From: Actinomycetota bacterium
GTDB taxonomy: Bacteria > Actinomycetota > UBA4738 > CALAEC01
Length of the DNA stretch: 64,000 nucleotides
Reading direction: 5' to 3'
Assembly: GCA_050692985.1 (NCBI GenBank)
Contig: JBOGVZ010000047.1
Location: forward strand, 76,533 to 140,532
Shown here: piece after piece, positions 1,975 through 45,525 of the stretch
Layout: each line of letters opens with the position of its first letter
How positions within the stretch are numbered: position 1 is the stretch's first letter
Position numbers and translations under genes: made by a program
Notes under the pieces: generated by a model
Seen by the model: only the letters and a program-made list of their open reading frames with translations
Told to the model about the DNA's origin: nothing
Database searches by the model: none

Positions 1975-2706
1975 ATGGCCACGGCCGAGACGGACCTGGT
2001 GACCACGTCCATGCGGGGGTTCTTCGACGGCCACCCCCACATCCGCTACCTGTTCTTCGGGGGCAAGGGCGGGGTGGGCAAGACCGCCATGGCCGGGACC
2101 ACCGCGGTGTCCCTGGCACGCCAGGGGACGCGAACGCTGCTGGCCTCCACGAACCCGGTGCACAGCCTGTCCGGCCTCCTGGACCAGGACGTGTTCGGCA
2201 AGGTCACCGACGTCGGCGGGGTGGAGAACCTGTCGGCCCTGGAGATCGACACCAAGGACGCCATCGAGCGCTCGAAGCGGGAGATCAAAGAGAAGGTCCA
2301 GTGGTTCCTGAAGTTCGCCGAGATCTCCACCAAGGAGGCCACCGAGTTCGTGGACGCGGCCACCATGAACCCGGCCTTCGAGGAGTCGGCCATGTTCGAG
2401 AACATGGTCGACCTGATCTTCAAGGACGAGTACGAGGCGTACGTGTTCGACACCGCCCCCACCGCGAACGCCCGGCGCCTGCTGGGGATGTCGAAGGTCT
2501 ACGGGCTGTGGGTCAACAAGATGGTGAAGTCGCGGGAGGAGGCCCAGGGCCTCCGTGAGCTGCTGTCGTTCACCAAGAAGAAGGAGGACGACCCGTTGAT
2601 GGAGTACCTGCTGGAGTTCCGGGAGCGCATCGCCCACGCCAAGGAGCTGCTCACCGACCCCGGCAAGACCGCGTTCTTCTTCGTCACGCTGCCCGAGGCC
2701 CTGCCG
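1975..2706 (+). pseudogene. ArsA/Get3-family P-loop ATPase, C-terminally truncated at about residue 244
   Basis: MATAETDL...YLFFGGKGGVGKTAMAGTTA (P-loop) ... YVFDTAPTANARRLL ... FFFVTLPEALP, after which homology stops abruptly at nt ~2706. The remaining 33 codons to the stop at 2808 are an off-frame reading of the opposite gene. About 80+ aa of the ArsA domain are missing. Confidence 0.65.
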
Positions 2707-3779
2707 ATGGCTCCCCGGAGGTGCTCGCCGCTCCCGGGGAAGCAGGTGAACTCGGGGAGGCCGTCCAGGGCCAGGTTCACCTTCCCCGACGACCCCCGGA
2801 ACTTGTAGCGACGCACGGCCGCCGTCACCGAGGGGTCGAGCACGCCGGGCTCCAGGAGGTCGAGGAAGGTCCGGCGGGCATCGACGCTGGAGAGCACCGC
2901 GTCGGCGTGGATCTCCTCCCCCGAGGCCAGGGCCACCCCCACGGCACGTTCGCCCCTGGTGAGGATGCGAGCCACCGGGGCCTCCAGGCGGATCTCGGCC
3001 CCGAACGAGCGGGCCGCCGAGGCGATGGCCTCGCTGGCGCCTCCGGTCCCCCCCCGGGGGATGCCCCATGCTCTATACACGCCGTCGATCTCCCCCATGT
3101 AGTGGTGGAGCAGGACGTACGCGGTGCCGGGCGAGCGGATGCCCTGGTAGGTCCCGATGATCCCCGACGCCGCCACGGTGGAGATGAGCGGGTCCGTCTC
3201 GAACCACTGCGACAGGAAGTCCACGGCGCTCATCGTCATGAGCTGGACGAACGTCCGCTGCTGCTCCCGGGACAGGTCCTCGAAGGAGCGGAGCAGGCCG
3301 GCGAGGGGAAGCCACTCACGGATGTCGATGCGGCCCACGTCCGGGGGCACCACCGACAGGATCGGCTTGATGAACCGGGCCATCTCCGCCATGAGCTGGC
3401 CGTACTCCTCGTAGGCCTCGGCATCGTGGCGTGACCACCGGCGGATCTCCCGCATCGTCCGGGCGTGGTCGTTCGTCCGCCACAGGTAGTCACCCTCCAG
3501 TGGCGTGAACGTGCCATCGAGGGGGAGGGAGGCGAATCCGTGGCGGGGGAGGCCGAGCTCCCGGATGATCTCCGGCCGGAGCAGGGAGATCACGTAGGAG
3601 GCCTCGCTGAACCGGAAGCCCGGGAACACCTCCTCCGTGACGGCCGCCCCGCCCACCACGTGGCGCCGCTCCAGCACGACCACCCGCCGGCCGGCCCGGG
3701 CCAGGTACGCGGCGGCCACCAGCCCGTTGTGCCCGCCCCCGATGACAACGGCCTCGAACCGCCGAGAGGTCGTGCCCAC
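2706..3779 (-). pseudogene. Phytoene-desaturase-family FAD/NAD(P)-dependent oxidoreductase (CrtI-like), C-terminally truncated at about residue 358
   Basis: MGTTSRRFEAVVIGGGHNGLVAAAYLARAGRRVVVLERRHVVGGAA (Rossmann GxGxxG) ... YKFRGSSGKVNLALDGLPEFTCFPGSGEHLRGAI, then homology is lost at nt ~2706. The remaining Ser-rich tail is antisense of the arsA-like gene. About 150 aa of the family's C-terminal domain are missing. Confidence 0.65.
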
Positions 3780-3810
3780 GGGCCGGAAGTCTACCGCGCG
3801 GTGCTACCGA

Positions 3811-4239: not shown

Positions 4240-5315
4240 GGTCGGACCGCCCCCTCCAGCCGGTCCAGGGCGTCCTCGAGCGGCGGCGGGACGCCGGTCT
4301 CGGTCCGGGGCTCCTCGGCGGGGCCGCCCGGCGAGGGTCCCCGCAGGGCGACGAAGGCCAGGGCCACCGCCAGCGCCACCACCGCCACGGCGGCGACCGC
4401 CAGGAGGACCGGGCGAGGCAGCCGCCTTCCTCCGGCCACCGGCGCCGCCGGCGGGAGGGGCTCGGTAGGGGTCACCGGGGGCTCGGCGTGGCGCGCCGGC
4501 TCGGCCTCGCCGGAGAGGGCCGCCGCCATGTCCTCCGCCGACGCGAACCGAGCGGCCGGGTCCGGAGACAGCGCCCGCTCGACCGCGGCGGCCAGGGCGG
4601 GGTCCGCGTCCGGACGGAGCTCCGACACGGCTGCCCGGCCGCCGTTGCGGATGGCATCGAGGAAGGCCGCCGGCGTGGCGGCCCGGAACGGCGGCCGGCC
4701 GGTCAGGGCCTCGTACAGGACGGCGCCCGCCGAGTACAGGTCGCTCTGCGGGGTGGCCGGCCTCCCCTCCAGGCGCTCCGGGGCCATGTACACCACGGTC
4801 CCCATCACCTCGGCCGTCTGGGTCGCCGCGGCGTCGGCCATCTTGGCGATGCCGAAGTCCGCGACCTTGGCGTCCCCATCCTCGGTGAGCAGGACGTTCC
4901 CCGGCTTGACGTCGCGGTGGACGATCCCCGCGGCGTGGGCCGCGCCCAGGGCCGCCAGGATGTCGCCGGCCAGGGCCCGGACGCGCTCGCGGTCCGAGGG
5001 CCCGTCCGCCAGCTCGTCGGCCAGCGTCCTGCCCGGCAACAGCTCCATGACGAGGTACGGGAGCCCGTCGTGGGTGCCGCTGTCGTAGACGGACACCACG
5101 TTCGGGTGCACGAGCCGGGCCGCGGCCCGAGCCTCGCCCTCCACCCGCCTCCGCACCGACGGCTGGGTTCCCAGGTCGCGGCGCAGGAGCTTCACCGCCA
5201 CCGGGCGGGACAGGCGAACGTCGCGCCCGGACCACACGTGGCCCATGCCGCCACCCGCGATCCGGCGCTCCAGCCGGTAGCGCCCCCCGACCACGGGAAC
5301 CGTCTCGCTGCTCAC
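4236..5315 (-). CDS. Hanks-type Ser/Thr protein kinase with a C-terminal transmembrane segment
   Basis: RYRLERRIAGGGMGHVWSGRDVRLSRPVAVKLL ... HRDVKPGNVLL ... DFGIA ... VYMAPE, a full kinase subdomain set. A hydrophobic stretch LLAVAAVAVVALAVALAFVAL is followed by an extracytoplasmic tail. Confidence 0.9.
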   Translation of the reverse strand: MSSETVPVVGGRYRLERRIAGGGMGHVWSGRDVRLSRPVAVKLLRRDLGTQPSVRRRVEGEARAAARLVHPNVVSVYDSGTHDGLPYLVMELLPGRTLADELADGPSDRERVRALAGDILAALGAAHAAGIVHRDVKPGNVLLTEDGDAKVADFGIAKMADAAATQTAEVMGTVVYMAPERLEGRPATPQSDLYSAGAVLYEALTGRPPFRAATPAAFLDAIRNGGRAAVSELRPDADPALAAAVERALSPDPAARFASAEDMAAALSGEAEPARHAEPPVTPTEPLPPAAPVAGGRRLPRPVLLAVAAVAVVALAVALAFVALRGPSPGGPAEEPRTETGVPPPLEDALDRLEGAVRP

Positions 5316-5428
5316 ACCCTAGGCATTCCCCGCAGGGCCGGGGATGAACGTTAGGAAACGCTCAGCCGAACAACGGCCAAGCGAGGCGAGCCGGTTGGAT
5401 CGCCCGCGGGCCCGTATGCTGGGCGGCC

Positions 5429-6829
5429 ATGTCCCGTCCGAGCGGTCCCTCGCGGTGGAGGCGCGGGGGGGCGGCGGCGGTGGCCGCCGTGGCCCTGGCG
5501 TCGGCGTGCACGGCGTCCCCCGAGGCCGGACCGAGCGCGGCGCCCACCTCTCCCTCCCCCAGCCCCGAGGCTCCCGTCCCTGCGCTCGAGGTGAACCTGG
5601 CCCGCACCGCCGGCTTCCCGGTGAAGGGCAAGGCCCGTCCCCGCCACCTGCGGCGGCCAGCTCGCGCGGTCCGGGAGGCCATGGATCGGCTGTACACGGC
5701 CGCGTTCGTGGACCCCGGCGCGTGGACCGGCGGCTTCCCAGGCGCGCTCCGCGAGTTCCGGGGCGAGGCCCGGCGACATGCCCGCAAGGACATCAACCGG
5801 CTCACCGTGGGGCGGGCAGCACGGGTCCTGTCCGAGGTTCGGCCGGTGAAGGCCCGGCTCCGGGTCGACCTGCTGCTGGGGACCGGGCGCAACGCGCTGG
5901 CCGCCCTGGCCCGGATGGAGTTCGCCGCCACCGGCCTCAGCACGGACGGCGTGGAGACGCCGATCCGCCATCGCGCCGAGTACCTGCTCCGCCGCTTCGG
6001 GGGCCGGTGGCAGATCGTGGCCTACCGGGTGAAGCATCGCCTGGTGCCCCAGCGGGTCCCCGGCGTGCCCACCGGGGGCACGCTGTTCGTGCTGGCGATC
6101 GGCAGCGACGCCCGCCCCCGGCAGTCGGTGCCCAGGGCCCGGGCCGACTCGATCCACATCATCGGGGTGAACCTGCGCAAGGGGAAAGCCTCGATCCTGG
6201 GGATCCCCCGGGACTCCCACGTCCCGATCCCCGGGCGGGGCACCCAGAAGATCAACGCGGCCCTGTTCCTGGGTGGCCCGGAGCTCCTGGTGCGAACGGT
6301 GGAGCAGCTCACCGGCATCCGCATGGACGGCTACCTGCTCACCGGGTTCGAGGGCTTCCGAAGGATGGTGACCCGCATCGGCGGCCTGACCGTCCGGGTC
6401 CCCTACCGGATGAGCGACGCGGCCTCCGGGGCGTACTTCCAGCCCGGCTCCAAGCGGATGAAGGGCCGGGCCGCCCTGGCGTTCTCCCGCAACCGCCACG
6501 ACGCGCCCGGCGGCGACTTCGGCAGGTCGGTCAACCAGGGGGCGGTGATCCTGGCCGCCCTCCGGGAGCTCCGCCGGGACGTGGGCAAGAACCCCGCCAC
6601 CCTGTTCAGGTGGGTGGGGGTCGCCGCCCAGCACCTCCAGACCGACCTCAGCCCCCTGGAGCGGCTGGAGCTGCTGATCGCCGCCCTGTCCATCGACCCC
6701 GGGAAGGTGCGGAACCGGGTGGTGTCCGGCGGCGGAGGCTTCGCCGGCAGCGCCAGCGTGGTGTTCCTGGGCGGCGGCGCCCGGGCGATGTTCCAGGACC
6801 TCCGCCGCGACGGCACGCTGGGCGGCTGA
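5429..6829 (+). CDS. LytR-CpsA-Psr (LCP) family cell-envelope phosphotransferase with lipoprotein-type signal peptide
   Basis: N-terminus AAAVAAVALASAC, then the LCP core RADSIHIIGVNLRKGKASILGIPRDSHVPIPGRGTQKINAA ... ALAFSRNRHDAPGGDFGRSVNQ. Confidence 0.85.
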   Translation: MSRPSGPSRWRRGGAAAVAAVALASACTASPEAGPSAAPTSPSPSPEAPVPALEVNLARTAGFPVKGKARPRHLRRPARAVREAMDRLYTAAFVDPGAWTGGFPGALREFRGEARRHARKDINRLTVGRAARVLSEVRPVKARLRVDLLLGTGRNALAALARMEFAATGLSTDGVETPIRHRAEYLLRRFGGRWQIVAYRVKHRLVPQRVPGVPTGGTLFVLAIGSDARPRQSVPRARADSIHIIGVNLRKGKASILGIPRDSHVPIPGRGTQKINAALFLGGPELLVRTVEQLTGIRMDGYLLTGFEGFRRMVTRIGGLTVRVPYRMSDAASGAYFQPGSKRMKGRAALAFSRNRHDAPGGDFGRSVNQGAVILAALRELRRDVGKNPATLFRWVGVAAQHLQTDLSPLERLELLIAALSIDPGKVRNRVVSGGGGFAGSASVVFLGGGARAMFQDLRRDGTLGG

Positions 6830-6841: not shown

Positions 6842-9800
6842 TCACCGAGACGTCGCCAGCATCTCCTCGGCGAACTCGGCGTGGCGGGGCATGCCCAGGC
6901 CCCGGTAGCCCGCCGCGGCCTCCTCGAGCATGGCCCGGGCCCGGTCCCCGTCCGCCGGGTTCCCCCACCGAAGCAGGGCGTGGGCGTGGAGCCTGCGCAC
7001 CTCAGGCACGTGGACCCGCTGGGGGAGGTCCTGGGCCTGGCGGAGCGCGGCGGCGAACCGCTCCTCGGCCTCGGCCCACCGGCCTCCGGCCGCCGCGGCC
7101 AGGCCCGCCACGGCGGGCAGGGGCCGCCCGTCCATCCCCCGCATGCGGACGCCCTTGGCCAGGGCCCGCTCCGCGTACCGGCCCAGCCCGGCCGCGTCCT
7201 CCCCCCGGCCCATCAGCGACAGGGACTCGATCGCGTACAGGACCATGGTCCACGCTCCGAACGTGATGGCCTCCTCCGGAGCGGGCAGCCGTCCCTCCCA
7301 CGCCCCGTAGAGCGCGAGGGCCTCGTCCTCGCGTCCGGCCTGGGCCAGATGGAGGAGGAGGGCCCCGGCGGACCAGCCCTCGAACGCCCCGGGGATCTCC
7401 AGCGAGACCGCCCGGCGGTGATGCTCCAGGGCCTCGTCCCACCGGCCCAACCACTCCGCCGAGATGGCCAGGAAGCTGTGCGACTGGGCCACCCACAGCT
7501 GCTCCAGCCGCTCACACAGCTCCAGGTCCCGGCGCGCGAAGGCCTCCACGGCCCGGAAGTCGCCCGTCCGTCCCACGTCCCGGAAGGCCCCGGCCCGCCC
7601 ATGCAGGATGATGGCCAGGCCCGATCCCACCCGCTCGGCGATCGGCGCCAGCTCCTCCCCCACCGCCTCGGAGGCCTCCAGGTCACCCAGGAAGAAGTGG
7701 CTGAACTCCACCAGGCCCAGCAGGACGGCCCGCTCCCACGGGCGATCGTGAAGGGCACCGGTGGCGTCGGCGCGGCGACCGGCCTCGACCGCGCCGGCGA
7801 ACTCCATGAACAGGTAGTCGGCGGTGGCCCGTCCCCCGTGCACGAACGCTTCCAGCCACGGATCCCCCAGCTCCCGGGCCAAGGCCAGGGCCTCCTCCTC
7901 CGTATCCAGGGCCGCGCGACGGTCGCCCGCCCACGCCAGGTAGGCCAGGTGGCCGGCCAGCAGCCGGACCCGGGCACCGTTCCGCATGCCGCCCGAGACG
8001 GTCAGCCCCCGCTGCACGAACTCCAGCCCCTCCACGGCCCGGCCGCTGTAGCCGAGCTCGTAGCCCAGGCGGGCGCAGAGCTCGGTCACGGCCTCGGGAT
8101 CGCCCAGCTCCGTGTACAGGTCGAGGGCCTGGCGCCACGCCGAGGCGGCGTCCCCGATCCGGCCCAGGCTCCGCAGGGCCAGCCCCAGTCGCACCAGGGC
8201 CTGGGCACGGGCCGGCGGGTCGCCCTCGATCAGCGACAGGGCGTTCTCGAAGTGGCCCAGGGCCTCCTCCCACGCGGCGCCGGCCATGGCTCGCTCCCCG
8301 GCCACGGTGAGGTATCGCCGGAGCTTGCCCGGGTCGACCCCCCCGCCGGCATTCAGCAGGTGGTGGATGAGCTCCTCGGCTCGCTCGTCCGCCCGTTCCC
8401 CCAGGCCGGCCTCGATGGCCTCGGCCACCTTCCGGTGCAGGCGCTGGCGACGGAGCGTGGACAGGCCCGCCAGCAGCGTCTGGCGGATCAGCTCGTGGGA
8501 GAACTCGAACCGCTGGCCGCCGTCGGCGGCGGCGATGAGCCGGGCGGCCTCGGCCGACTCCAGGGCGTCGAGCACCTGGTCCTCCCCGGTCCCGGCCACG
8601 GCCTCCAGGAGGTCCGTGTCGAAGCCCCGGCCGATCGTGGCCGCGGCGGCCAGGGTCTTGCGGCCCTCCTCGGTGAGCCGCTGGAGCCTCCGGCCGATCA
8701 CCAGCCGGAGGCTCTCCGGGACGTCGACCTCGTCCACCAGGACGTCGGTGCGCCACCGGCCGGCCTCGTCGATCAGGCGGCCCTCCTCCATCAGGTGCCG
8801 GACCACCTCCTCCACGAAGAACGCGTTCCCCTCGGTCTCCGCGTAGACGACCCGGACCACCTCCGGGGGCGGATCCTGGCCGGCCAGGCCGGCCATCATG
8901 GCCGCCACGGCCGGCTCGTCCAGCCGCTTCAGGGAGATCCGCTCGGCCAGGCGGCGACGCAGGAGGTCCTCGAGCGTCCGGGCCAGCGGGCGGTCCACCT
9001 CGAGCTCCACGTCGCGGTACGTGCCCAGGACCAGCAGGGGGACGTCGTCCAGGGACTCGGCCACGTGCTCCAACAGGAGCAGGGTGGGCTCGTCCGCCCA
9101 GTGGAGGTCGTCCAGGACCAGCAGCATCGGGCGGAGCTCGGCCGCTCGGCCGATGAAGTCCCGGATCGAGTTGAACAGGTAGCGGCGCTCCTGCTCGGGA
9201 GGAAGGTCCAGGGCCGGGGGGATGTCGCCGAACAGGCGCCGGATCTCGGGGACGATCCGGGCGATCTCCCCCGCGGACTCTCCGAGGAGCGCGCGCAGGG
9301 CCTCGGGGCTCCTGGCCCGGGCCACGGCCTGCTCCAGGATCGCCACCCAGGGCATGTACGGGAGGCCGCCCTCCGCCTGGGTGCAGTACCCCACCAGCAC
9401 ACGGGCCCCCCGCTGGTCGGCCTCCCAGGAGACCTCTTCGGCCAGGCGGGTCTTGCCCACCCCCGGCTCGCCACCGATCAGGACCAGCGATCCCCGGCCT
9501 TCCAGGGCCTCGTCCAGGTGCCGGCGAAGGTCGGCGCGTTCCTCGTCCCGGCCGATGAACGGCGTACGGGCCTGGTCCGGGGGAGCGACCGCCTTGCCCC
9601 CCCACCCCAGCTCGTGGAGCCGCCACCGCTGCGGGAACCCCTTGAGCCAGTACAGGCCTCGGTCCACCAGGGTGGGCCCATCGAGGCCCTCGGCGTGGGG
9701 GAGGAGGTCCTCGGACACCAGGATCTGGCCGCCCCGGGCGTGGGCGGAGATGCGGGCCGCCGCGTTGACGGTGGCACCGAACAGGTCGTCGCCCCGCTCG

Positions 9801-10102
9801 ATCACCTCCCCGGCGTGGAGCCCCATCCGCACCGACACCCCGGGCGCTTCCTCCGGCAGGCGGCGTTGGATGGCCACAGCGGCGTCGAGGGCGGTCCGGG
9901 GCTCGGGGAAGGAGAGCATGAACCCGTCGCCCATCGTCTTGACCTCCCGGCCGCGGCGGCGGGCGATCTCCTCGCGGACGATCCCCTCGTGGAGCTCCAG
10001 GAGGAACCGGCACTCCTGGTCGCCCACCCGGTTGGCCAGGTCCGTGGAGCCCACCACGTCGGTGAACAGCAGGGTGGCGGTACGGGCGGCTTCGTCGGTC
10101 AG
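6842..10102 (-). CDS. Multidomain class III adenylate/guanylate cyclase - AAA/NB-ARC ATPase - TPR protein (Rv0386/Rv1358-like architecture, no LuxR HTH)
   Basis: ...TATLLFTDVVGSTDLANRVGD...GDGFMLSFPEP...GLHAGEV (cyclase), then LIGGEPGVGKTRLA (Walker A) ... LVLDDLHWADEP, then a long TPR-like C-terminus. The conserved FTD metal-binding strand lies upstream of the first GTG (10057). An in-frame CTG at 10100-10102 sits 6 nt after GGGAGAGGA and is taken as the start. Confidence 0.85.
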   Translation of the reverse strand: MTDEAARTATLLFTDVVGSTDLANRVGDQECRFLLELHEGIVREEIARRRGREVKTMGDGFMLSFPEPRTALDAAVAIQRRLPEEAPGVSVRMGLHAGEVIERGDDLFGATVNAAARISAHARGGQILVSEDLLPHAEGLDGPTLVDRGLYWLKGFPQRWRLHELGWGGKAVAPPDQARTPFIGRDEERADLRRHLDEALEGRGSLVLIGGEPGVGKTRLAEEVSWEADQRGARVLVGYCTQAEGGLPYMPWVAILEQAVARARSPEALRALLGESAGEIARIVPEIRRLFGDIPPALDLPPEQERRYLFNSIRDFIGRAAELRPMLLVLDDLHWADEPTLLLLEHVAESLDDVPLLVLGTYRDVELEVDRPLARTLEDLLRRRLAERISLKRLDEPAVAAMMAGLAGQDPPPEVVRVVYAETEGNAFFVEEVVRHLMEEGRLIDEAGRWRTDVLVDEVDVPESLRLVIGRRLQRLTEEGRKTLAAAATIGRGFDTDLLEAVAGTGEDQVLDALESAEAARLIAAADGGQRFEFSHELIRQTLLAGLSTLRRQRLHRKVAEAIEAGLGERADERAEELIHHLLNAGGGVDPGKLRRYLTVAGERAMAGAAWEEALGHFENALSLIEGDPPARAQALVRLGLALRSLGRIGDAASAWRQALDLYTELGDPEAVTELCARLGYELGYSGRAVEGLEFVQRGLTVSGGMRNGARVRLLAGHLAYLAWAGDRRAALDTEEEALALARELGDPWLEAFVHGGRATADYLFMEFAGAVEAGRRADATGALHDRPWERAVLLGLVEFSHFFLGDLEASEAVGEELAPIAERVGSGLAIILHGRAGAFRDVGRTGDFRAVEAFARRDLELCERLEQLWVAQSHSFLAISAEWLGRWDEALEHHRRAVSLEIPGAFEGWSAGALLLHLAQAGREDEALALYGAWEGRLPAPEEAITFGAWTMVLYAIESLSLMGRGEDAAGLGRYAERALAKGVRMRGMDGRPLPAVAGLAAAAGGRWAEAEERFAAALRQAQDLPQRVHVPEVRRLHAHALLRWGNPADGDRARAMLEEAAAGYRGLGMPRHAEFAEEMLATSR

Positions 10103-10170
10103 GGCGGATCCTCTCCCGGGCGTTCGATCCCAGATTGTCCCGCAGCTGCCGGTCCGGCGCCTACCCGTTT

Positions 10171-10244
10171 CACTGGGGGGTTCGCTCGCTGTTCACTCTG
10201 ACGCTTCCATCGCCCCCGGCGAGCTACACCCCCCGGACCCCCCC
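10171..10244 (+). repeat. Copy A of a ~73-nt GC-rich hairpin repeat (CACTGGGGGGTTCGCTCGC...GGCGAGCTACACCCCCCGGACCCCCCC)
   Basis: Shares its 5' 20 nt and 3' ~26 nt with the copies at 26232, 56804, 56878 and, inverted, 34454. The central ~27 nt are unique. Its 3' end supplies the last codons and the TAG stop of the P450 gene (...LRVRGGVRGV*). Confidence 0.8.
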
Positions 10245-11525
10245 GCGGACCCGGAGCTCCTTCAGGCCGCGGATGATGTAGTTGGGCTTCCACTCGGGCT
10301 CCTCCACCAGCTCCAGGCCCGGGAGGCGCCGCAGCAGCGTGCCGAACGAGGTCTCCAGCTCCACCCGGGCCAGCGGCGCCCCCAGGCAGAAGTGGATCCC
10401 GGCGCCGAACGACATGTGGGGGTTCTTCGGCCGGCCCACGTCGAGCTCGTCGGGACGCTCGAACACCTCGGGGTCGCGGTTGGCGCTGCCGAACAGCAGG
10501 GCCAGCTCCTGTCCCTTCGGGATCTCCACGCCGTGGACCTCCACGTCCTCCAGCACCCACCGCTCGAACATCTGGAGGGGGGTGTCGTAGCGCATCAGCT
10601 CCTCGATGGCCGTGCGCACCAGGGAGTGGTCGTCGTGGAGGCGTTGCAGCTCGCCCGGGTTGCGGAACAGCGACCACCACCCGTTGCCGGTGACGTTGAC
10701 CGTGGCCTCGTGGCCGGCGTTGAGCAGCAGGACGCAGGTGCCGATCAGCTCGTCCTTGGTGAGCCGGTGTCCCTCCTCCAGCACCTGGGTCAGGGCCGAG
10801 ATCAGGTCCTCCCGCGGGTCCCGGCGGCGCTCCCTCGATAGCCCGCGGAGGTAGGCGGAGAACTCCTCGCTGGCGGTGACCGCGGCCCGGGCGTCCTCGT
10901 CGGTGGGGTTGAGCTCGTACATCCGGCAGATCTCCGCCGACCACGGACGGAGGAGGTGGCGGTCGGACTCGGGCACGCCCAGCATCTCGGCGATCACCGC
11001 CACCGGCAGCGGCTCGGCCAGCTCCCTGATGAGGTCGAACTCGCCGGCGCCGGCCACCCCGTCTACCAGCTCCTCCATCAGGCCCTGGACGAACGGGCGC
11101 AGGCCCTCGACCATCCGCGGGGTGAACGCCTTCGACACCAGCTTCCTCACCCGGGAGTGGTCGGGAGGCTCCATGTCCAGGATCCCGGATCGGATCAGAT
11201 GCCAGAAGGGCGCGTGCCACTCGGGCTCCTCGGGCCGGCCCATCTCCGCGTGGGTGGCCATGTGGTGGTACGTCCGGCCGAACCGCCGGTCGCGGAGCAA
11301 GCCGTTCACGTCGTCGTGGCGGGGCACGATCCACTGGTTCGTGCCCTCGAAGTAGTGGATGGGCCCGGCCCGGCGCAGCGACGCGTAGACCGGATAGGGA
11401 TCGGCCACGAACTCCACTGCCCACGGGTCGAACCCCAGGGCCGCGGGATCGGCCATTCCGTGTGGCGCGGGGACCTGCGGCGCGTGCGCCATCAGCGGGA
11501 GTGTAGCGCGGGCGCTCGGCGTCAC
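10224..11525 (-). CDS. Cytochrome P450
   Basis: ...AGHEATVNVTGNGWW... EELMRYDTPLQ ... FGAGIHFCLGAPLARVE (heme-binding Cys loop) ... The start may be the internal Met (MADPAALGFDPW). Confidence 0.9.
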   Translation of the reverse strand: MTPSARATLPLMAHAPQVPAPHGMADPAALGFDPWAVEFVADPYPVYASLRRAGPIHYFEGTNQWIVPRHDDVNGLLRDRRFGRTYHHMATHAEMGRPEEPEWHAPFWHLIRSGILDMEPPDHSRVRKLVSKAFTPRMVEGLRPFVQGLMEELVDGVAGAGEFDLIRELAEPLPVAVIAEMLGVPESDRHLLRPWSAEICRMYELNPTDEDARAAVTASEEFSAYLRGLSRERRRDPREDLISALTQVLEEGHRLTKDELIGTCVLLLNAGHEATVNVTGNGWWSLFRNPGELQRLHDDHSLVRTAIEELMRYDTPLQMFERWVLEDVEVHGVEIPKGQELALLFGSANRDPEVFERPDELDVGRPKNPHMSFGAGIHFCLGAPLARVELETSFGTLLRRLPGLELVEEPEWKPNYIIRGLKELRVRGGVRGV

Positions 11526-11575
11526 CCACCGGTGCTAGGCTGCACGCATCCTCCCCCGGAGAGGAGCATCGGGGA

Positions 11576-11902
11576 GTGGACGTCCTGAACACGGCCATCA
11601 ACGCTGCGGTCATCGCTGCGGTGGGGATCCTGCTGGGGCGCTTCGTCAAGGGCAGGTTCGATGAGAACGACCGGCGGTGGGCGGAGAACGACCGGCGGTG
11701 GGCGGAGAACGACCGGCGCCTCGCGGCCATCGAGGCCAAGCTGGACGCCCACGACGCCCGGTTCGACGCCCTGGAGGCCAGGATGGCTTCCTTCGAAGCG
11801 CGGATGGATTCGTTCGAACGATCCCTGGACGGCATGCGCTCGGACCTGACCCGGGTGGCCCTGGCCGTGGGCGCGGGGCCGGCGGCCGGGACCGGAGGCT
11901 AG
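11576..11902 (+). CDS. Small N-terminally membrane-anchored coiled-coil protein with ENDRRWA heptapeptide tandem repeats
   Basis: GTG start 8-10 nt after GGAGAGGAG. MDVLNTAINAAVIAAVGILLGRF (TM), then ENDRRWAENDRRWAENDRRLAAIEAKLDAHDARFDALEARMASFEARMDSFERSLDGMRSDLTRV. Confidence 0.6.
   Translation: MDVLNTAINAAVIAAVGILLGRFVKGRFDENDRRWAENDRRWAENDRRLAAIEAKLDAHDARFDALEARMASFEARMDSFERSLDGMRSDLTRVALAVGAGPAAGTGG
11663..11725 (+). repeat. Perfect 21-bp direct repeat x2 plus a diverged third unit (GAGAACGACCGGCGGTGGGCG) inside the small coiled-coil gene
   Basis: Seen directly in the sequence at 11663-11704 (two identical units) plus a third unit with 3' divergence. It encodes the ENDRRWA repeats. Confidence 0.85.
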
Positions 11903-11990
11903 CGGGGGCACCGGCTCGCGCCGGCGCCGGGGCGGACACGCACGTCCGTCCCGGGCCGGCATCCCTCACCGGGCTAGGATTCGCCCTGAC

Positions 11991-14612
11991 ATGGCCGAGC
12001 TGCCCACCGGGACCGTCACGTTCCTGTTCACCGACATCGAGGGATCGACCCGGCTGCTGGCCGAGCTGGCGGAGGGATACCGGGACGTCCAGGCGGACCA
12101 CTTCCGCCTGATGCGTAAGGCCATGGCCGAGGGGGGCGGGGTGGAGATCCGCACCGAGGGCGACGCGTTCTTCGTGGTGTTCCCCAGCCCCGCCGGGGCG
12201 GTGAAGGCGGCAGCGGCCGCTCAGCGGAAGCTGGCCGCCCACCACTGGCCCGGTGGCCGCCCGGTGCGGGTGCGGATGGGCATGCACACCGGCGAGGGCG
12301 TGCTGGGAGGCGACGACTACCTGGGCATCGACGTGAACCGGGCGGCGCGCATCGCCGCAGCCGGTTACGGCGGCCAGGTCCTGCTGTCCTCGACCACGAA
12401 GCCGCTCGTCGAACGGAACCTCCCCCAGGGCGTGGCCCTCCGCGACCTGGGCGCGCATCGGCTCAAGGACTTCGACCAGCCCGAGCACCTCCACCAGCTG
12501 GTGATCGAAGGGCTGCCCGTCGGACTTCCCCGCCCTCAAGACCCTCGACGCTCGCCCCACAAACCTGCCCACCCCCCGGACCTCGTTCATCGGGCGGGAT
12601 CGGGAGGTGGCCGCGGTGGCCGAGGCGGTGGGAGCCTCCCGCCTGGTGACGCTGACCGGCCCCGGGGGCACCGGGAAGACCCGCCTGGCCATCCAGGCCG
12701 GGGACGGCCTGCGGGACGATTTCCCCGACGGGGTGTTCTTCGTGGACCTGTCCCCGATCGCCGATCCGGACCTGGTCGGCCCCGCCGTGGCCGAGGCCCT
12801 GAAGGTCATGGAGGAGCCCGGGCGGGCGCTGCTCGACGCCGTGGCCGACCACCTCCGCGACCGGGACACCCTCCTGGTGGTGGACAACTTCGAGCAGGTG
12901 ATCCAGGCGGCCGGCGTGGTGGAGCGGCTCCTCGACACTGCCCCCGGGGTACGGGTCCTGGCGACCAGCAGGGAGCCACTGCACCTGTCCGGGGAGCGCG
13001 AGGTCCCCGTGCCTCCGCTCGAGCTCCCCGATCCCTCGGACCTCCCGGCGGTCGACGTCCTGACTCACTACGAGGCCGTGGCCCTGTTCATCGACCGGGC
13101 CACCGCGGTGCGGCCGGGGTTCCGGGTGACGAACGAGAACGCCCCCGCCGTGGCGGAGCTGGTGGCCCGGCTGGACGGGCTGCCGCTGGCGGTCGAGCTG
13201 GCCGCCAGCCGCGTCAAGATCCTCACACCCCAGGCCATGCTGGCCCGGCTGGGCCAGCGGCTGCCGCTGCTCACCGGCGGGGCCCGCCACCTGCCCGAGC
13301 GCCAGCGCACCCTCCGAGGGGCCATCGAGTGGAGCCACGACCTCCTCGACGACGAGGAACGGCGGGTCTTCGCCCGTCTGGCGGTCTTCGCCGGGGGCTG
13401 GACCCTGGAGGCGGCCGAGGCGGCCTGCGGCGACGGCGTCGACGTGCTCGACAGGCTGGACTCGCTGGTGGACCGAAGCCTGGTCCGGCGCATCGATGAG
13501 GACGAGGGCGAGCCGCGGTTCACGATGCTGGAGACGATCCGTGAGTTCGCCGGCGAGCGGCTCGGGGAATCGGGCGAGGAGGAAGAGGTCCGGCGGCGCC
13601 ACGCCGGGTTCTTCCGGAGCTTGGCCGAGGAGGCCGGGCCGCACCTCGAGGCCGAGGAGCAGGTCGCGTGGCTGGACCGCCTGGACCGCGAGCGCGACAA
13701 CCTGCGGACGGCCATGTCCTGGGCGATCGACAGCGGCGAGGCGGAGGGCGGACTGGGGCTGGCCGCGCCCATCTGGCGGTTCTGGCAGCACCGGGGTCCG
13801 CTCTCCGAGGGACGCGGGTGGCTGGAGCGTCTCCTGGCGCTGCCACCCGCTCAGGAACGGTCGCCGGCCCGGGCCCGGGCGCTCGAAGCCCTGGGGAACG
13901 TGGCCTACTGGCAGAACGACTACGCGGCCACCCGGAAGGCCTACGCCGAGGCCGAGAGCCTCGCTCGCCGGCTCGGGGACAAGAGGTTCCTGGCCCGGGT
14001 GCTGTGGGACCAGTCCTACATGGCCGGGATCGACGGTGACCTCGACAGGGGAGAGGCGGCCCTCCTCGAGGCTCGGCAGGCGGCCCAGGAAGCCGGCGAC
14101 CGGGCCGCCACCGCGCTGGTGATGGTGGACCTGGGTTCCTCCGGCACAGGCGAGGGGACAGCCTCGGTGGCCGCGAACAGATGCGGCAGGGGATCGCCAT
14201 CATGGAGGAGCTCGGCATGACCGGGCTGCTGGCCGACAACATCGGAGTGCTCGGCATGCTCGACCTCGTCCTTGGCGACGTCAACGATGCCCGCCTCCAC
14301 CTCCGGCGGGCCATGGATCTGACCGTGGAAGCGGGAAGCGAGATGGGGATCGCCCAGATGCTCCTGGGGGTGGCCCTGCTCGCTCAGGCCGAGGGCCGCC
14401 ACGAACGTGCCGCGCGCCTCCTGGGCGCGCAGGCCCGGATCCAGGAGACCCTTGGTGGCGCCCCCCCGCCGGAGCTCCTGGCCCCGTTCGGCGACCCGGA
14501 GGCGGATGCCCGCACCGCCCTGGACGACGAGACCTTCGAGCGCGCCTGGGCCAAGGGCCGAGCCATGACCACGGAAGAGGCGGTTGCCTACGCCCTGGAG
14601 GAGGAGGGATAG
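11991..14612 (+). pseudogene. Second cyclase - NB-ARC/AAA - TPR gene, disrupted by two compensating frameshifts (+1 near 12519, -1 near 14136)
   Basis: Frame 0: MAELPTGTVTFLFTDIEGST...GDAFFVVF... cyclase through ...QLVIEGLP. The protein continues in frame +1 (SDFPALKTLDARPTNLPTPRTSFIGRDREVAAV...LTGPGGTGKTRLA...TPR...ATALVMVDLG). It then returns to frame 0 (FLRHRRGDSLGGREQMRQGIAIMEELG...TTEEAVAYALEEEG, the typical C-terminus of this family). Frame 0 between the two shifts is Arg/Gly/Pro junk. Confidence 0.7.
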
Positions 14613-14629
14613 GCAACCGGGCCGGCGCT

Positions 14630-14646
14630 CCCGGGCAGGACCCGGG
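14630..14646 (+). terminator. Short GC hairpin (CCCGGG-CAGGA-CCCGGG) just after the cyclase pseudogene stop
   Basis: Perfect 6-bp stem about 18 nt downstream of the stop at 14612. There is no U-tract (common in high-GC genomes). Weak call. Confidence 0.25.
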
Positions 14647-14702
14647 CCAGCTGGCGGCGAAGTAGGTCCACGAAGCCTGTGGGAAGGAGCCGCATGCGTC
14701 CG

Positions 14703-16424
14703 CGCCGAGCCCTGATCGTCGCCCTGGCCGCGGCCCTCCTGGTGCCCGCCGCCGCCGGCGCGACCCCGGACGAGCTGCCCCCGCTCCACCCGGTCACCGA
14801 GGACCGCTTCCAGGCCCTCCCGATGGAGACCGAGATGATCGACACCCGGGGCGGCCGGGTGTACGTGGAGGTCATCCGCCCCGACGTACCGGAGGGAACC
14901 CGGGTCCCGGTCATCCTCACGTTCACGCCCTACCAGGTGTTCCTGTCCTCGGCCGACGACGCGGTGGCGTCCTTCTTCGTGCCCAAGGGCTACGCCCGGG
15001 CCATGGCCCACGTGCCGGGGACCGGGAACTCCGGCGGGTGCTGGGACCACGGCGGTCCCCGGGAGCGAGCGGCCGGGTACGACCTGGTCGAGTGGCTGGG
15101 CACCATGGAGTGGGCGAGCGGCCGGGTGGGGATGATCGGCGGCTCCTACGAGGGGACCACGGCGAACATGGCCGCCGTTGACCGGCCCCCCCACCTGGCC
15201 ACCATCGTCCCCGAGGTGGCCATCGCCCAGTGGTACGGCTACTCATACGCGGACGGGGTCCGGTACCTGATCGTCGACCCGGGGCAGAACCAGAGCGTGG
15301 TCATCAACGAGCAGGGCTTCGACACCCCGCTGGCGTTCGACTTCGCCATCGGGCTGGCCCCCCCGCTCAATCCCACCGACCCCGACCACCTCGGAAGGGC
15401 CGTGGAGCGACTGTGCCCCGGCGGAGACAAGCTGGTCCACACCGAGCACGGCTACGACATGGAGCCCGACTTCGACGAGTTCTGGCAGGAGCGGAGCTAC
15501 CTGCGGGACGCGTCCCGGGTCCGGGTGCCGGTGCTGGTCCAGGGTGGATGGCGCGACTACAACGTGAAGAGCCACGAGTCCACCCGGTGGTTCGAGGCCC
15601 TGCCCCAGAGGGTGCCGAAGATGCTGGTGATGGACGCCGTGGCCCACGGCACCCCGCAGGACCCGCGGATCCGGTGGCAGACGCTCCTGCACGCATGGTT
15701 CGACCGGTGGCTGTACGGCTTCGACACCGGCATCTCGGACCAGCCCCCGGTCCTGTCGAAGGCGAACGACGGCGAGCTCCGCGCGGACACCCGGTGGCCC
15801 CCGGCGGGGACGCAGCCGGCCAGGCTGTTCCTCCACGGCGACGGCCGGCTGGCCACCGCCCCGGTGGAGGGCCCGCAGGCCCTGGGGTCGTTCCGGGACT
15901 CGGCGAAGACGACCGAGTCCGAGGCCCTGGCCCGCCGGGCCTCGGACGGAGGGGACTTCCTGTGGTTCGAGAGCGCCCCGCTCACCGAGGACATGCGGAT
16001 CGCCGGAACCCCCAGGCTGTCCCTGCACGCCACGTCGTCGGCGACCTCGACCCACTTCACCCCGGTGCTGTTCGACCTGGGGCCGCCGCTGACCGACCGG
16101 CCCCAGTGCCGGTTCGTGCCGCCGCAGCAGGCCTGCACGGTGGACCGTGGGTTCCTCAACGCCAGGTACCGCGACGGGCTGGAGGAGGGGAAGGACCTGG
16201 TGCCGGGAGAGCCGTACCACGCCACGGTGCGGTTCATCGGCAACGACTGGATGGTCCCGGCCGGGCACCGGATCGGCCTGGCGGTGATGTCGGCGAACCT
16301 GTGGTGGGCGGTCCCCGACGACCAGCGCGCCGAGAACACCCTGCACGCCGGACCGGGCGCCCGCACGGCGCTGATCCTCCCGGTCGTCGGCGGCACGGCC
16401 ACCGCCCGGGCCGCCGGGCTGTAG
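14703..16424 (+). CDS. Secreted CocE/NonD-family hydrolase (S15 Xaa-Pro dipeptidyl-peptidase-like)
   Basis: ATG 4 nt after GGAAGGAG. Signal peptide MRPRRALIVALAAALLVPAAAGA, then ...VILTFTPY ... GMIGGSYEGTTANMAA (nucleophile elbow GxSYxG) ... a long C-terminal beta-sandwich. Confidence 0.8.
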   Translation, partial: RRALIVALAAALLVPAAAGATPDELPPLHPVTEDRFQALPMETEMIDTRGGRVYVEVIRPDVPEGTRVPVILTFTPYQVFLSSADDAVASFFVPKGYARAMAHVPGTGNSGGCWDHGGPRERAAGYDLVEWLGTMEWASGRVGMIGGSYEGTTANMAAVDRPPHLATIVPEVAIAQWYGYSYADGVRYLIVDPGQNQSVVINEQGFDTPLAFDFAIGLAPPLNPTDPDHLGRAVERLCPGGDKLVHTEHGYDMEPDFDEFWQERSYLRDASRVRVPVLVQGGWRDYNVKSHESTRWFEALPQRVPKMLVMDAVAHGTPQDPRIRWQTLLHAWFDRWLYGFDTGISDQPPVLSKANDGELRADTRWPPAGTQPARLFLHGDGRLATAPVEGPQALGSFRDSAKTTESEALARRASDGGDFLWFESAPLTEDMRIAGTPRLSLHATSSATSTHFTPVLFDLGPPLTDRPQCRFVPPQQACTVDRGFLNARYRDGLEEGKDLVPGEPYHATVRFIGNDWMVPAGHRIGLAVMSANLWWAVPDDQRAENTLHAGPGARTALILPVVGGTATARAAGL

Positions 16425-16432
16425 GGCGGGGT

Positions 16433-17410
16433 TCAGGTACCCTTCGCCGGGGGGTGGGTGTCGCGGATCTTGAACAGCCGGACGCGGCCCACGCCCTTGA
16501 GGCTCCGGCTCCCGATCCGCCTCGCGTCCACCGCGTCGCGGCCGACCGCGTCGACGAATTCCTCGGAGGCCACCACGGAGCTGGGCCGGGCGAAGGCGGT
16601 GATCCTGGCGGCCACGTTGACGGGCCGCCCGAAGTAGTCGCCGCCCAGGGCCACCACCTCGCCGTAGTCGAGCCCGGCCCGGGCCGCAGGGAGGACCTCC
16701 GATCCCTCGGCCCGGCGGACCACGGTGGCGGCGGCCTCCAGGGCCCGAGGGGCCTCCGTGGAGACGAACATCACCGCGTCGCCGATCACCTTCACCAGGC
16801 GGGCTCCGGCCTCGGCGCAGGCCTCCACGGCCAGGTCCTCGAAGGCGTCGATCATCCCGCCCAGCTCCTCGCCGGGCAGGTCCTCGGAGATGCGGGAGAA
16901 GTCCACCAGGTCCACGAACCCGGTGGCCAGCGCGGAGCCCTCGCCGGTCCCGGCGGCCCGCAGCCCGTTCAGGGCCAGGAACAGGTGGCGGCGGTGGGCC
17001 TGGTCGAGGAGGTGGGCAGTGCTCTCCAGCAGCGAGTCCATCACGGGGCGGAGCCGCTCCTCCATCCCCTCACCGGGCTCGACGGCCATGGCCCCCAGGA
17101 TGCGGTCGCGGAACAACCTCGTCTCCGCGTCGGCGATCCGGGCCAGCGTGGTTCCGTACAGCCTGGTCACGGTGAGCATCTCGTCGGGCGGAACCCCGAG
17201 CTCCATGATGCCCCGGAGCAACGCCAGCGCCTCGACGTCACGGTCGTCGAACACGACCTCCCGGTCGTCCGGCTCGGGCATCCCCAGGGCCCGCCACACC
17301 CGCTTGGCCAGCGTCAGGTCGAGCCCGGCCTTGGCCGCGGCCTCCGGGGCGGTCAGGTGCGGCGGAGGGGCGAAGCTCTCCGCGGGGGGTGGCAGCGGTC
17401 GCTCGGACAG
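16433..17410 (-). CDS. Class III adenylate cyclase with N-terminal regulatory domain (Rv1264-like)
   Basis: C-terminal cyclase ATGFVDLVDFSRISEDL...KVIGDAVMFV...GEVVALGGDYFGRPVNVAARI. The N-terminal ...GLDLTLAKRVWRALGM resembles the Rv1264 regulatory domain. Conserved residues extend upstream of the first GTG (17299) to a TAG. The only plausible start is CTG at 17408-17410, 6 nt after AGGAGG. Confidence 0.8.
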   Translation of the reverse strand: MSERPLPPPAESFAPPPHLTAPEAAAKAGLDLTLAKRVWRALGMPEPDDREVVFDDRDVEALALLRGIMELGVPPDEMLTVTRLYGTTLARIADAETRLFRDRILGAMAVEPGEGMEERLRPVMDSLLESTAHLLDQAHRRHLFLALNGLRAAGTGEGSALATGFVDLVDFSRISEDLPGEELGGMIDAFEDLAVEACAEAGARLVKVIGDAVMFVSTEAPRALEAAATVVRRAEGSEVLPAARAGLDYGEVVALGGDYFGRPVNVAARITAFARPSSVVASEEFVDAVGRDAVDARRIGSRSLKGVGRVRLFKIRDTHPPAKGT

Positions 17411-17530
17411 GTCGGGCCTCCTGGGTTCTGCAAGAGCCTACCCGCTGGACCGCTGGGCCATGCGGGGCCCGAAGACCGCACCGGGGGCCGCTTGCTACTG
17501 TCTTCGCTGACCGAGCGGTGGGGATGGCGG

Positions 17531-18286
17531 ATGGAGACGGAAGCGGGACACCCGAGCGAGGACGAGGGAGCCCTGGTCGTCCGGGCGTCCGACCCCGAGG
17601 AGGTGGCCGGGCGGCTGGAAGCGCTGGACTCCGTGGGCGGGTACCGGCTCGAGCCCGGACCCACCCTGCGGATCCGCGACCGGTACGTCGACACGGCCGA
17701 CGGCGACCTGGGGGCTCGGAGGATCGCCCTGCGGGTCCGGGAGGTGGACGGGGCCACGCTCCTGACACTCAAGGGCTCCTCGCGGACGACCGGGCACGGG
17801 ACCCACCAGCGCCTGGAGATCGAGGAGCCGTGGTCGGAGCCGGCGCTGGCGCGAGCTATGGAGGAGCTCCGGACCATGGGTGTCCCCCTGGAGGTTCGGG
17901 CCGGGGGGGCCACGCCCGTCGAGGCCCTGGAGAGCGTGGGGCTTCGGGTGGTGCAGGACCGAGAGACCGAGCGGACCGTCCGGCACGTCCTGGCGGACGG
18001 CCCGGCGGCCGAGCTGGCCATCGACCGCGTGACCTACCACCTCGGGGAGGCGGCTCCCCGGTTGCTCGAGGTCGAGGTCGAGGCCAAGCGGCCCGGCGCC
18101 TCGGGTGTGCTCCACGACGTGATCGACGCCCTGGACCATGAGTGGCCCGAGCTCCGCCGATGGCCCCACAGCAAGCTGGCCATCGGAAAGGCCCTGGAGC
18201 GGCTGCTGCGGGAAGGGCGATTCCGTGGCGAGCTGGTCACCGGCAAGGACCTGGACCGGATCGCCGTGGAGCTCGGCGACGCCTGA
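17531..18286 (+). CDS. CYTH-domain protein (triphosphate tunnel metalloenzyme / class IV adenylate cyclase-like)
   Basis: METEAGHPSEDEGALVVRASDPEEVAGRLE ... RIALRVREVDGATLLTLKG ... QRLEIEEPW ... RLLEVEVEAKRP, the alternating acidic/basic beta-strand pattern of CYTH. It is divergent from the Rv1264-like cyclase. Confidence 0.7.
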   Translation: METEAGHPSEDEGALVVRASDPEEVAGRLEALDSVGGYRLEPGPTLRIRDRYVDTADGDLGARRIALRVREVDGATLLTLKGSSRTTGHGTHQRLEIEEPWSEPALARAMEELRTMGVPLEVRAGGATPVEALESVGLRVVQDRETERTVRHVLADGPAAELAIDRVTYHLGEAAPRLLEVEVEAKRPGASGVLHDVIDALDHEWPELRRWPHSKLAIGKALERLLREGRFRGELVTGKDLDRIAVELGDA

Positions 18287-45286: not shown

Positions 45287-45525
45287 GGGCGAGGGTCACT
45301 AAGTCGTTCGCCGCCCGACCCCCGGCTTCCTGCCTCCGGGCCGGTCGGGCGGTTGGCGGCGGGAGGCTTCGCAGGCCGTCGTCGTCCCTGGCGTTGCCGG
45401 TTCCACCCAGGCACAAATGGGGAAATCATCGGCCGATGCTGGGGCGCTTCACTCTGGTCGACGGCCTGGCCGGTACGTATCGTCGCCTCTGCGATGGACC
45501 CGGGCGACGAACCGACTGATCACAG

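Follow-up and report, generated by a model that had tools for sequence, protein, structure and literature searches.

Within a window of 64,000 nt (the whole stretch of DNA analysed) from the metagenome-assembled genome (MAG) of an uncultured, soil-type Actinomycetota bacterium, a single locus on the forward strand at 11991–14612 was found to be read in two frames. Three-frame translation and tblastn searches of the window with intact homologues both yielded three collinear pieces, lying in frame 0 as far as 12518, in frame +1 at 12520–14136 and, from 14136 up to the stop codon at 14610–14612, once more in frame 0. The corresponding HSPs covered 11991–12530 (tblastn frame +3), 12508–14136 (frame +1) and 14124/14133–14603 (frame +3). 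Protein homology was continuous across all three frame segments, which, as the sequence-only reading of this DNA had held, are one gene by descent. When joined, the pieces gave a repaired protein of 873 aa, with which intact homologues of 869–877 aa aligned across 100 % of the length; both junctions were free of gaps. The frames were also segmented independently of homology by a seven-state Viterbi procedure on codon-position GC, used in place of a sliding-window plot of GC3 that was too noisy. This placed the frame switches at 12521/12522 and 14134/14135; these compositional switches fell within 2–3 nt of both indel sites, and codon-position GC tracked the homology frames.

Segment A (11991–12518, forward strand, frame 0) starts with ATG, comprises 176 codons ending in ...VIEGLP and encodes a class III nucleotidyl cyclase domain. 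Its GC3 was 0.93 and its product was 82 % identical to the homologue P0001. Guanylate_cyc (PF00211) was detected at aa 5–145 with 54.8 bits (cut-off 21.9), and the best PDB matches of the domain were class III cyclases, the top solved-structure match being Ma1120 of Mycobacterium avium (PDB 4wp3 and 4wp9; E = 5e-19, aa 4–162). The metal-binding pair of aspartates was present as D15 (FLFTDIEGST) and D58 (TEGDAFF), aligned to the Ma1120 motifs and invariant in the family, the FTDIE and GD motifs being common to Ma1120 and the window protein. The pattern V-N-x-A-x-R, which from general knowledge of class III cyclases we take to be the transition-state Asn/Arg motif, could be read as DVNRAARI, with N116 and R120; Ma1120, which as crystallized is a stand-alone catalytic domain, has VAMAAR where the window protein has the canonical VNRAAR. 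The position of the substrate-specifying Lys for adenine (K-x-x-G-D) was occupied by Arg53 (IRTEGD), where Ma1120 has the Lys of VKSQGD, a difference that by itself predicts neither nucleotide specificity nor activity.

Segment B (12520–14136, forward strand, frame +1, 539 codons) encodes a linker, a P-loop STAND-type NTPase, a winged-helix HTH_77 domain and the first TPR-like repeats, with 74 % identity to P0001 and a GC3 of 0.935. The Walker A (GPGGTGKT, aa 223–230) and Walker B (LLVVDNFE, aa 294–301) motifs were invariant or nearly so in the family alignment. AAA_22 passed its threshold (32.4 bits, cut-off 27), whilst nSTAND1 (26.2 against 27.1) and NB-ARC (19.4 against 23.5) both fell slightly below theirs; HTH_77 (PF25872) was a precomputed assignment on the 534-aa product annotated here. 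Segment C (14136–14612, forward strand, frame 0) consists of 158 codons and a stop, and encodes C-terminal TPR-like repeats (TPR_12, 31.1 against a cut-off of 30.1; TPR_MalT, aa 671–813, 31.9 and thus below its cut-off of 45). Its terminal residues, TTEEAVAYALEEEG, fit the family consensus AMxxEEAVAYALE, so that the claim of a family-typical C-terminus after the second shift was upheld. The repaired protein ends in these repeats, and no LuxR/GerE-type HTH was found in it by the Pfam scan (E ≤ 0.01). It retained 161 of the 163 sites whose conservation across the family is 95 % or more, the same rate as in intact members. There were no in-frame stops in the homology frames, over which GC3 stayed at 0.88–0.94.

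The first indel site (12516–12519, forward strand) reads CTG CCC-G-TCG GAC, with CCC at 12516–12518 and G at 12519. One surplus base moves the frame here from 0 to +1, and tblastn, translation and the Viterbi segmentation all agreed with the switch that had been proposed at about 12519. Judging from the sequence, the surplus base may be the G that follows CCC or, if the original was CCG, a C added to its CC run. The protein alignment across this site was gap-free (GLP/SDFPALKTLD against GLPHEFPALKALD and GLPRDFPALKTLD). The second site (14133–14137, forward strand, GGGTT) reads CTG GG-TTC, with GGG at 14133–14135 and TT at 14136–14137, and is one base short, which returns the frame from +1 to 0. 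That return, placed earlier at about 14136, was confirmed by the gap-free junction (DLG/FLRH against DIGFLI, DMGFML and DRGFYI) and by codon comparison; since all three of the closest homologues have GGG TTC (Gly-Phe) at this point, one G was most likely lost from CTG GGG TTC. Both sites lie in short G/C runs, CCC(G) and (CCT)GGG, only 3–4 nt long.

The middle frame is closed on its 5' side by a frame +1 TGA at 12502–12504 (forward strand), 16 nt 5' of the first site, and on its 3' side by a frame +1 TGA at 14218–14220 (forward strand), 82 nt 3' of the second site. The description of frame 0 between the shifts as Arg/Gly/Pro noise was borne out by translation, which also showed three stops there, at 13497 (TGA, 13497–13499, forward strand, the first in frame 0 beyond the first site), 13542 and 14040. 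The Viterbi segmentation and a frame scan, which took in approximately 57 kb of coding sequence, revealed no further same-strand frame switch without a stop codon anywhere in the 64 kb window. The frame scan also flagged convergent-gene overlaps at 36208–37099 and 45523–46371, for which there was no frameshift evidence, and an overlap at about 2705 that represents a different kind of disruption.

In public annotation the locus is broken up. Exact look-up identified the middle ORF as MGH2723707.1, a 534-aa ‘ATP-binding protein’ that ends at the TGA at 14218–14220 and has its annotated start at a GTG at 12616, preceded by GGGAGG at 12602–12607 (together 12602–12618, forward strand). This GTG sits within the codons of the conserved ...GRDREVAAV..., and for 32 codons upstream of it the sequence was still homologous to the linker found in intact proteins (SDFPALKTLDARPTNLPTPRTSFIGRDREVAA). 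Because homology runs upstream of GTG 12616 to the frame switch, the middle ORF is a fragment by origin, which contradicts the idea of an independent gene with its own start. Segment C was annotated separately as a hypothetical protein of 136 aa (ATG 14202; MGH2723708.1) or 143 aa (ATG 14181), and the cyclase domain was left uncalled in at least one assembly.

The nearest protein relatives were P0001, P0002 and P0003 (869–877 aa, 68–71 % identity, collinear), uncharacterized ‘predicted ATPase / class 3 adenylate cyclase’ proteins from soil Actinomycetota and Chloroflexota metagenomes. They have the same length and the same architecture as the repaired protein (Guanylate_cyc, AAA_22/nSTAND-like P-loop, HTH_77 and TPR, with a C-terminal EEAVAYALE) and each of them is encoded by one uninterrupted ORF, in contrast to the window copy with its two 1-nt indels. 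The best match was 71 % identical in the protein database, 66 % in genome contigs (L064) and 55–61 % in metagenome contigs. Among 162 family loci, 118 gave one HSP exceeding 800 aa, whilst collinear frame switches were seen in four (approximately 2.5 %), of which two have two switches. The shifts described here were not found in relatives: the four frame-switched family loci shift at other positions, and the close homologues are continuous. Nine loci (L067 and L074–L081) are cyclase-less relatives, which match only from about residue 165–190 onward. Several family copies occur per MAG (for example L003 with L063, L011 with L070, and L022 with L025, each pair from the same bin). None of the relatives among the loci examined had the same neighbours (a P450, a DUF7310 coiled-coil gene and a CocE/NonD hydrolase); because the neighbourhoods differ from that of the window, there is no demonstrable positional orthologue among them.

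The repaired protein was also compared with the adenylyl cyclases of the Rv0386, Rv1358 and Rv2488c type of M. tuberculosis, which we take to combine cyclase, ATPase and TPR regions with a LuxR HTH. The two share an N-terminal class III cyclase followed by a P-loop ATPase and helical repeats, and the general logic of a STAND-like switch that controls a cyclase. The repaired protein differs in being without the C-terminal LuxR/GerE HTH and in having an AAA_22/NB-ARC-like NTPase with HTH_77, compared with AAA_16 in the Rv0386 type, and in the strict sense it is not of the Rv0386 type. The ORF at 6842–10102, which had been offered as the intact template, lies on the minus strand, is only approximately 27 % identical, is of the AAA_16 type and belongs to a different subfamily.

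Both indels were also present in two other public assemblies of the same organism. In GCA_975305695.1, a second MAG assembly, both sites were identical, with 0 mismatches over 21.7 kb, and in the Logan assembly of run SRR27067772 a contig of 3202 nt that spans both sites corresponded exactly to window positions 12017–15218. Logan is a k-mer assembly that drops singleton k-mers. With 0 mismatches in 21.7 kb, the three assemblies were probably built from the same reads and hence would not be independent at the read level. A literature search on the accession of the run found no mention of it. Exact look-ups against approximately 15 billion proteins returned neither the intact allele nor alleles repaired at the first or the second site only.

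Taken together, the locus is probably one copy of a gene for a cyclase–STAND NTPase–TPR signalling protein, genuinely disrupted not long ago and now a pseudogene or gene remnant. Going by its domain families, the ancestral 873-aa protein would have sensed a ligand or partner through the C-terminal TPR array, the P-loop STAND NTPase would have oligomerized in response, and oligomerization would have let the N-terminal class III cyclase domains pair as active dimers that make cAMP. The 1-nt insertion at 12516–12519 and the 1-nt deletion at 14133–14135 break this ORF into three pieces. Translation from the native ATG at 11991 is predicted to yield the cyclase domain as 176 native residues followed by a 326-residue Arg/Gly/Pro-rich out-of-frame tail, up to the stop at 13497; the NTPase–HTH–TPR part would be makeable only from the fortuitous internal GTG at 12616, and the last 158 codons would again be separate. 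Either indel alone would be inactivating. The second was most plausibly acquired neutrally once the first was in place; this agrees with the gene being a redundant copy in a family that has several paralogues in each genome. Two lesions clustered in one 2.6 kb gene are expected of a dead gene. That they have opposite signs would be a coincidence. The sequence-only reading had considered a frame-restoring pair improbable, but opposite signs are to be expected in roughly every second pair of 1-nt indels, and the ‘restoration’ rescues nothing, since the 539 codons between the two indels remain out of frame and frame 0 already meets a stop at 13497. Ordinary bacterial frameshift pseudogenes of expanded families likewise carry several 1-nt indels in short homopolymers, remain homologous to intact relatives through the changes of frame and have redundant paralogues; in contrast to them, the window copy was without detectable further decay in the form of conserved-site substitutions, stops or deletions. 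The retained conserved residues fit a very recent inactivation, but they are no less compatible with an artefact or with a split gene that is still in use.

The main competing explanation, a sequencing or consensus artefact in an intact gene, with both indels arising as errors at short G/C homopolymers and passing from the shared reads into each assembly built on them, was considered unlikely. Short G/C runs are typical of sequencing indels and of real slippage mutations alike; the homopolymer context speaks for errors, the run length of just 3–4 nt against them. An artefact would agree with a repaired protein that is indistinguishable from intact members at conserved sites, with the probable sharing of reads among the three assemblies, with a further suspicious junction in the window near 2705–2760 and with L065, a family locus that has two frame switches and comes from a long-read MAG project, judging by its name. 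Against this, the Logan contig carries both sites exactly over 3.2 kb, the error rate must be low, given the lack of any other stop-less switch in the coding sequence of the window, and the chance that two uniformly placed errors share one 2.6 kb gene is approximately 4–5 %. The agreement of three assemblies and the lack of other switches in 64 kb make a systematic sequencing error less likely. The third possibility raised by the sequence-only reading, a recombination or gene-conversion tract in which a paralogue supplied the middle 1.6 kb and the joints were inexact by +1 and −1 base, would account for both boundaries by a single event, and the genome does have several cyclase–ATPase–TPR genes. 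It is scarcely credible, as the P0001–P0003 clade was nearest for segments A, B and, approximately, C, and the identities of the three segments to P0001 (0.82, 0.74 and 0.47) follow the family-wide conservation gradient (0.66, 0.57 and 0.39). Moreover, the only paralogue in the window is the distant one at 6842–10102, and 1-nt offsets are not normally created by homologous recombination.

It is also conceivable that the pieces form a functional split gene, with the cyclase domain, the 534-aa NTPase–HTH–TPR protein from GTG 12616 and the TPR tail of 136–143 aa possibly re-associating, but we regard this as very unlikely. The good Shine–Dalgarno-like GGGAGG 8 nt upstream of GTG 12616, the calling of the middle and C-terminal ORFs as proteins by gene callers, the existence of cyclase-less NTPase–TPR relatives and the undecayed conserved sites would all be in keeping with it. 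However, the GGGAGG–GTG arrangement is encoded by the conserved R-E-V-A-A-V and is therefore expected by chance, a protein started at this GTG lacks the conserved first stretch of the NTPase module (FIGRDRE...), the cyclase piece is burdened with its 326-aa nonsense tail, the second site cuts inside a TPR repeat (LG/FL..GD) and not at a domain boundary, and the same split was seen in no relative examined. The probability is vanishingly small that a full-length protein is produced by programmed recoding, by a +1 shift at CCC-G (12516–12519) and a −1 shift at G-GGU (14133–14136). CCC-N proline codons are prone to +1 shifts, and one occurs at the first site with a weak purine-rich GAAGGG 3 nt upstream of the CCC; at the second site a tRNA-Gly in the P site could slip from GGU and pair with GGG. 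Nevertheless, the A site at the first site holds neither a stop nor a rare codon but the ordinary GUC that comes after CCC, and the second site (G GGU UCC) has no slippery X XXY YYZ heptamer and offers the A-site tRNA no way to re-pair. In all close homologues these residues are encoded without a change of frame, the four other frame-switched loci shift at different positions, and the combined yield of two inefficient events would be negligible. Even taken more broadly, the notion that the indels are real and the locus still used, either as a split STAND system or through low-level double slippage yielding a trickle of full-length protein, appears highly improbable. If it were true, the retained conserved residues would reflect ongoing selection and not recency.

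As a probable recently disrupted paralogue, the locus deserves annotation as one frameshifted cyclase–STAND–TPR gene and is of little importance beyond annotation; should the indels prove to be artefacts at the read level, they would be a small caution on the consensus quality of MAGs. For the family, the locus illustrates turnover in a hugely expanded group of cyclase-coupled STAND sensors of soil Actinomycetota and Chloroflexota.

Two frame switches were observed in the cyclase-STAND NTPase-TPR gene at 11991–14612 (plus strand), and both could be placed precisely. Since the window has a G+C content of 73 % and contains long spurious ORFs in every frame, ORF length alone was uninformative. 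Three-frame translation placed a class III cyclase domain in frame 0 up to 12518 (...VIEGLP; segment A), a P-loop NTPase with helical repeats in frame +1 from SDFPALKTLDARPTNLPTPRTSFIGRDRE to ...ALVMVDLG at 14136 (segment B), and a final stretch in frame 0 from FLRHRRGDSL to TTEEAVAYALEEEG, with its stop at 14610–14612 (segment C). Frame 0 between the two sites was the Arg/Gly/Pro-rich noise described in the sequence-only reading and also contained stops at 13497, 13542 and 14040; frame +1 was closed upstream by a TGA at 12502–12504 and ended downstream at a TGA at 14218–14220. A homology-free 7-state Viterbi segmentation, which used codon-position G+C alone, changed coding phase at 12521/12522 and 14134/14135, and GC3 of the homology-frame segments A, B and C was 0.93, 0.935 and 0.88. 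Five intact homologues queried against the whole window by tblastn each gave three collinear plus-strand HSPs (frame +3, 11991–12530; frame +1, 12508–14136; frame +3, 14124 or 14133 to 14603). All three approaches thus confirmed the frame path 0 to +1 to 0.

Joining 11991–12518, 12520–14136 and 14136–14609 gave a repaired protein of 873 aa, in which Pfam identified Guanylate_cyc (aa 5–145), AAA_22, TPR_12 and TPR_MalT, with nSTAND1 and NB-ARC near threshold. The cyclase domain was canonical class III: the metal-binding motifs FTDIE and GD are present, as is VNRAAR, with Arg at the usual substrate-Lys position; its best solved relative was Ma1120 of M. avium (4wp3, E = 5e-19). Beyond it lay a STAND-like P-loop NTPase (GPGGTGKT, LLVVDNFE), HTH_77 (found on the 534-aa middle ORF in precomputed annotation) and TPR repeats. 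In logic the protein resembles the mycobacterial Rv0386-type cyclases, but these possess a LuxR HTH, which a Pfam scan did not find in the repaired protein, and assignment to that type was therefore not adopted. Thousands of relatives were recovered when 5.8 billion protein clusters were searched; most came from Actinomycetota MAGs and soil-type metagenomes and carried the label ‘predicted ATPase/class 3 adenylate cyclase’. The best were 869–877 aa long with query coverage of 99–100 %, the closest three (P0001–P0003) being 71, 70 and 68 % identical. The true family is this large uncharacterized group of soil Actinomycetota and Chloroflexota, with several paralogues per genome.

The gene lies at 11991–14612 (+) in a dense cAMP-related cluster (6842–18286), together with an AAA_16-type cyclase-ATPase-TPR gene (6842–10102, −), a 282-aa Ad_Cy_reg and cyclase protein (16433–17281, −) and a CYTH-domain protein (~17531–18286, +). 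The AAA_16-type gene had been offered as the template architecture; it is on the minus strand and of another ATPase type, and with ~27 % identity it is a poor template and was also rejected as a recombination donor.

Alignment with homologues was gap-free at both junctions, GLP/SDFPALKTLD aligning to the stretches GLPHEFPALKALD and GLPRDFPALKTLD, and VMVDLG/FLRHRRGD to SGDIGFLI-GRVD and SFDMGFMLFRRGE. As all three closest homologues have GGG TTC at the second site, the window (CTG GG-TTC) most likely lost one G. The first site (CTG CCC G TCG) has one surplus base: CCG has gained a C, or CCC is followed by an extra G.

Exact look-up identified two annotated proteins: MGH2723707.1 (‘MAG: ATP-binding protein [Actinomycetota bacterium]’; the 534-aa ORF, 12616–14217, +) and MGH2723708.1 (locus tag ACRDI0_05490, on a 167,687-bp contig; 14202–14609, +). 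The 534-aa ORF was also encoded on two further records. CDIABC010000050.1 (a 74-kb contig of GCA_975305695.1) showed 0 mismatches to the window across 21.7 kb, the sole difference being one 21-nt tandem copy at 11698, and a 3202-nt Logan contig from run SRR27067772, for which a literature search found nothing, was identical to 12017–15218 and covered both sites. Both indels thus recurred in three assemblies, the products of at least two assemblers, although the assemblies most probably share reads. The tandem unit (GTGGGCGGAGAACGACCGGCG, 11656–11718), of which the window has one copy more than the otherwise identical contig, adds 7 aa in frame to a DUF7310 coiled-coil protein (11576–11902, +) just upstream of the frameshifted gene, reflecting either assembly collapse or true copy-number polymorphism. 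The stored gene calls of GCA_975305695.1 left the cyclase part uncalled (5287–6001 of its record, window ~11903–12615), the next call after the small coiled-coil ORF being the 534-aa ORF, so that the cyclase domain is lost from public annotation. The 90 %-identity cluster of the 534-aa protein (12616–14217) has many members of 57 aa, and its representative, P0122, is a protein of this length that looks unrelated; such clustering hides the fragment in homology-search listings.

When the repaired protein was aligned with 118 full-length relatives, it kept 54 of 54 (A), 105 of 107 (B) and 2 of 2 (C) of the sites that were ≥95 % conserved, inside the leave-one-out distribution of intact members (means 0.985, 0.982 and 0.996). 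Apart from the two indels no damage was seen, indicating a very recent event, an artefact or pieces still under selection. No closer relative was found among assembled genome contigs (best 66 % identity) or metagenome contigs (55–61 %), and the window's neighbours were absent beside all these loci and on the contigs of P0001–P0003. Neither the intact 873-aa sequence nor either single-repair allele was found by exact look-up among 15 billion proteins. A single HSP of >800 aa was present in 118 of the 162 fetched family loci; four loci from public MAGs and metagenomes (L064, L065, L100 and L161) carried collinear frame switches, all at positions unlike the window's. L065 and L100 had two switches each; among relatives in the genome collection L064 was the closest, with 66 % identity over the N-terminal part.

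Each Viterbi segment in the window was tested for a stop codon at its end, a scan blind to shifts less than ~100 nt from gene ends. Stop-less transitions ended only the segments 11988–12521 (next stop +978 nt) and 12522–14134 (+86 nt); every other same-strand transition fell on a stop and had a start close by, which indicates a low background frame-error rate. The scan also flagged three convergent-gene overlaps, two apparently harmless and one, near 2705, a different type of lesion. There, within 2499–2808, the homology of an ArsA-like ATPase (1975–2808, +; PF02374 positions 2–220 of 305) and an FAD amine-oxidase-like gene (2499–3803, −; PF01593 positions 3–293 of 443) ended at one place, and the tail of each was antisense to its partner. 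The pattern, at ~2705–2760, has the look of a breakpoint left by deletion or rearrangement, or of a misjoined assembly; the other assemblies fetched do not extend over it.

The best explanation of the two switches, and a probable one, is that a redundant paralogue has recently become a frameshift pseudogene or gene remnant; real pseudogenization had been among the alternatives first proposed. The clustering of both lesions in one gene matches what a dead gene predicts. The undamaged conserved sites would also suit the main rival, a read-level artefact, which is nevertheless unlikely given the low background rate, the chance of two uniformly placed errors sharing one 2.6-kb gene being ~4–5 %. 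The argument that two frame-restoring indels are improbable fails, since reasoning from the sequence gives opposite signs in about half of cases when two 1-nt indels strike one gene. With 539 codons out of frame between the sites and a frame-0 stop at 13497, nothing is rescued, so the second indel was not selectable as a suppressor.

A functional split gene, its pieces still under selection, would fit the lack of further damage and has a GGGAGG (12602–12607) 8 nt upstream of the annotated GTG start (12616), but is a minor possibility: these bases code for conserved R-E-V-A-A-V, the linker homology with intact proteins extends 32 codons upstream of the GTG to the frame switch, and the second site cuts inside a TPR-like repeat. 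The middle ORF is thus a fragment by origin and not an independent gene with its own start. A recombination tract from a paralogue, which might have carried segment B in, is essentially excluded, as identity to P0001 (A 0.82, B 0.74, C 0.47) tracks the family-wide gradient (P0001 versus others, means 0.66, 0.57 and 0.39) and P0001–P0003 ranked with the nearest relatives of A, B and C alike, B showing no foreign affinity. Programmed frameshifting was rejected: the second site reads G GGU UCC, which does not match the X XXY YYZ heptamer; at the first, the codon after CCC is an ordinary GUC, and the purine-rich GAAGGG lying three bases before CCC simply codes for conserved Glu-Gly; and homologues are continuous ORFs, the four frame-switched loci shifting elsewhere. 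The case is one of ordinary biology or annotation hygiene.
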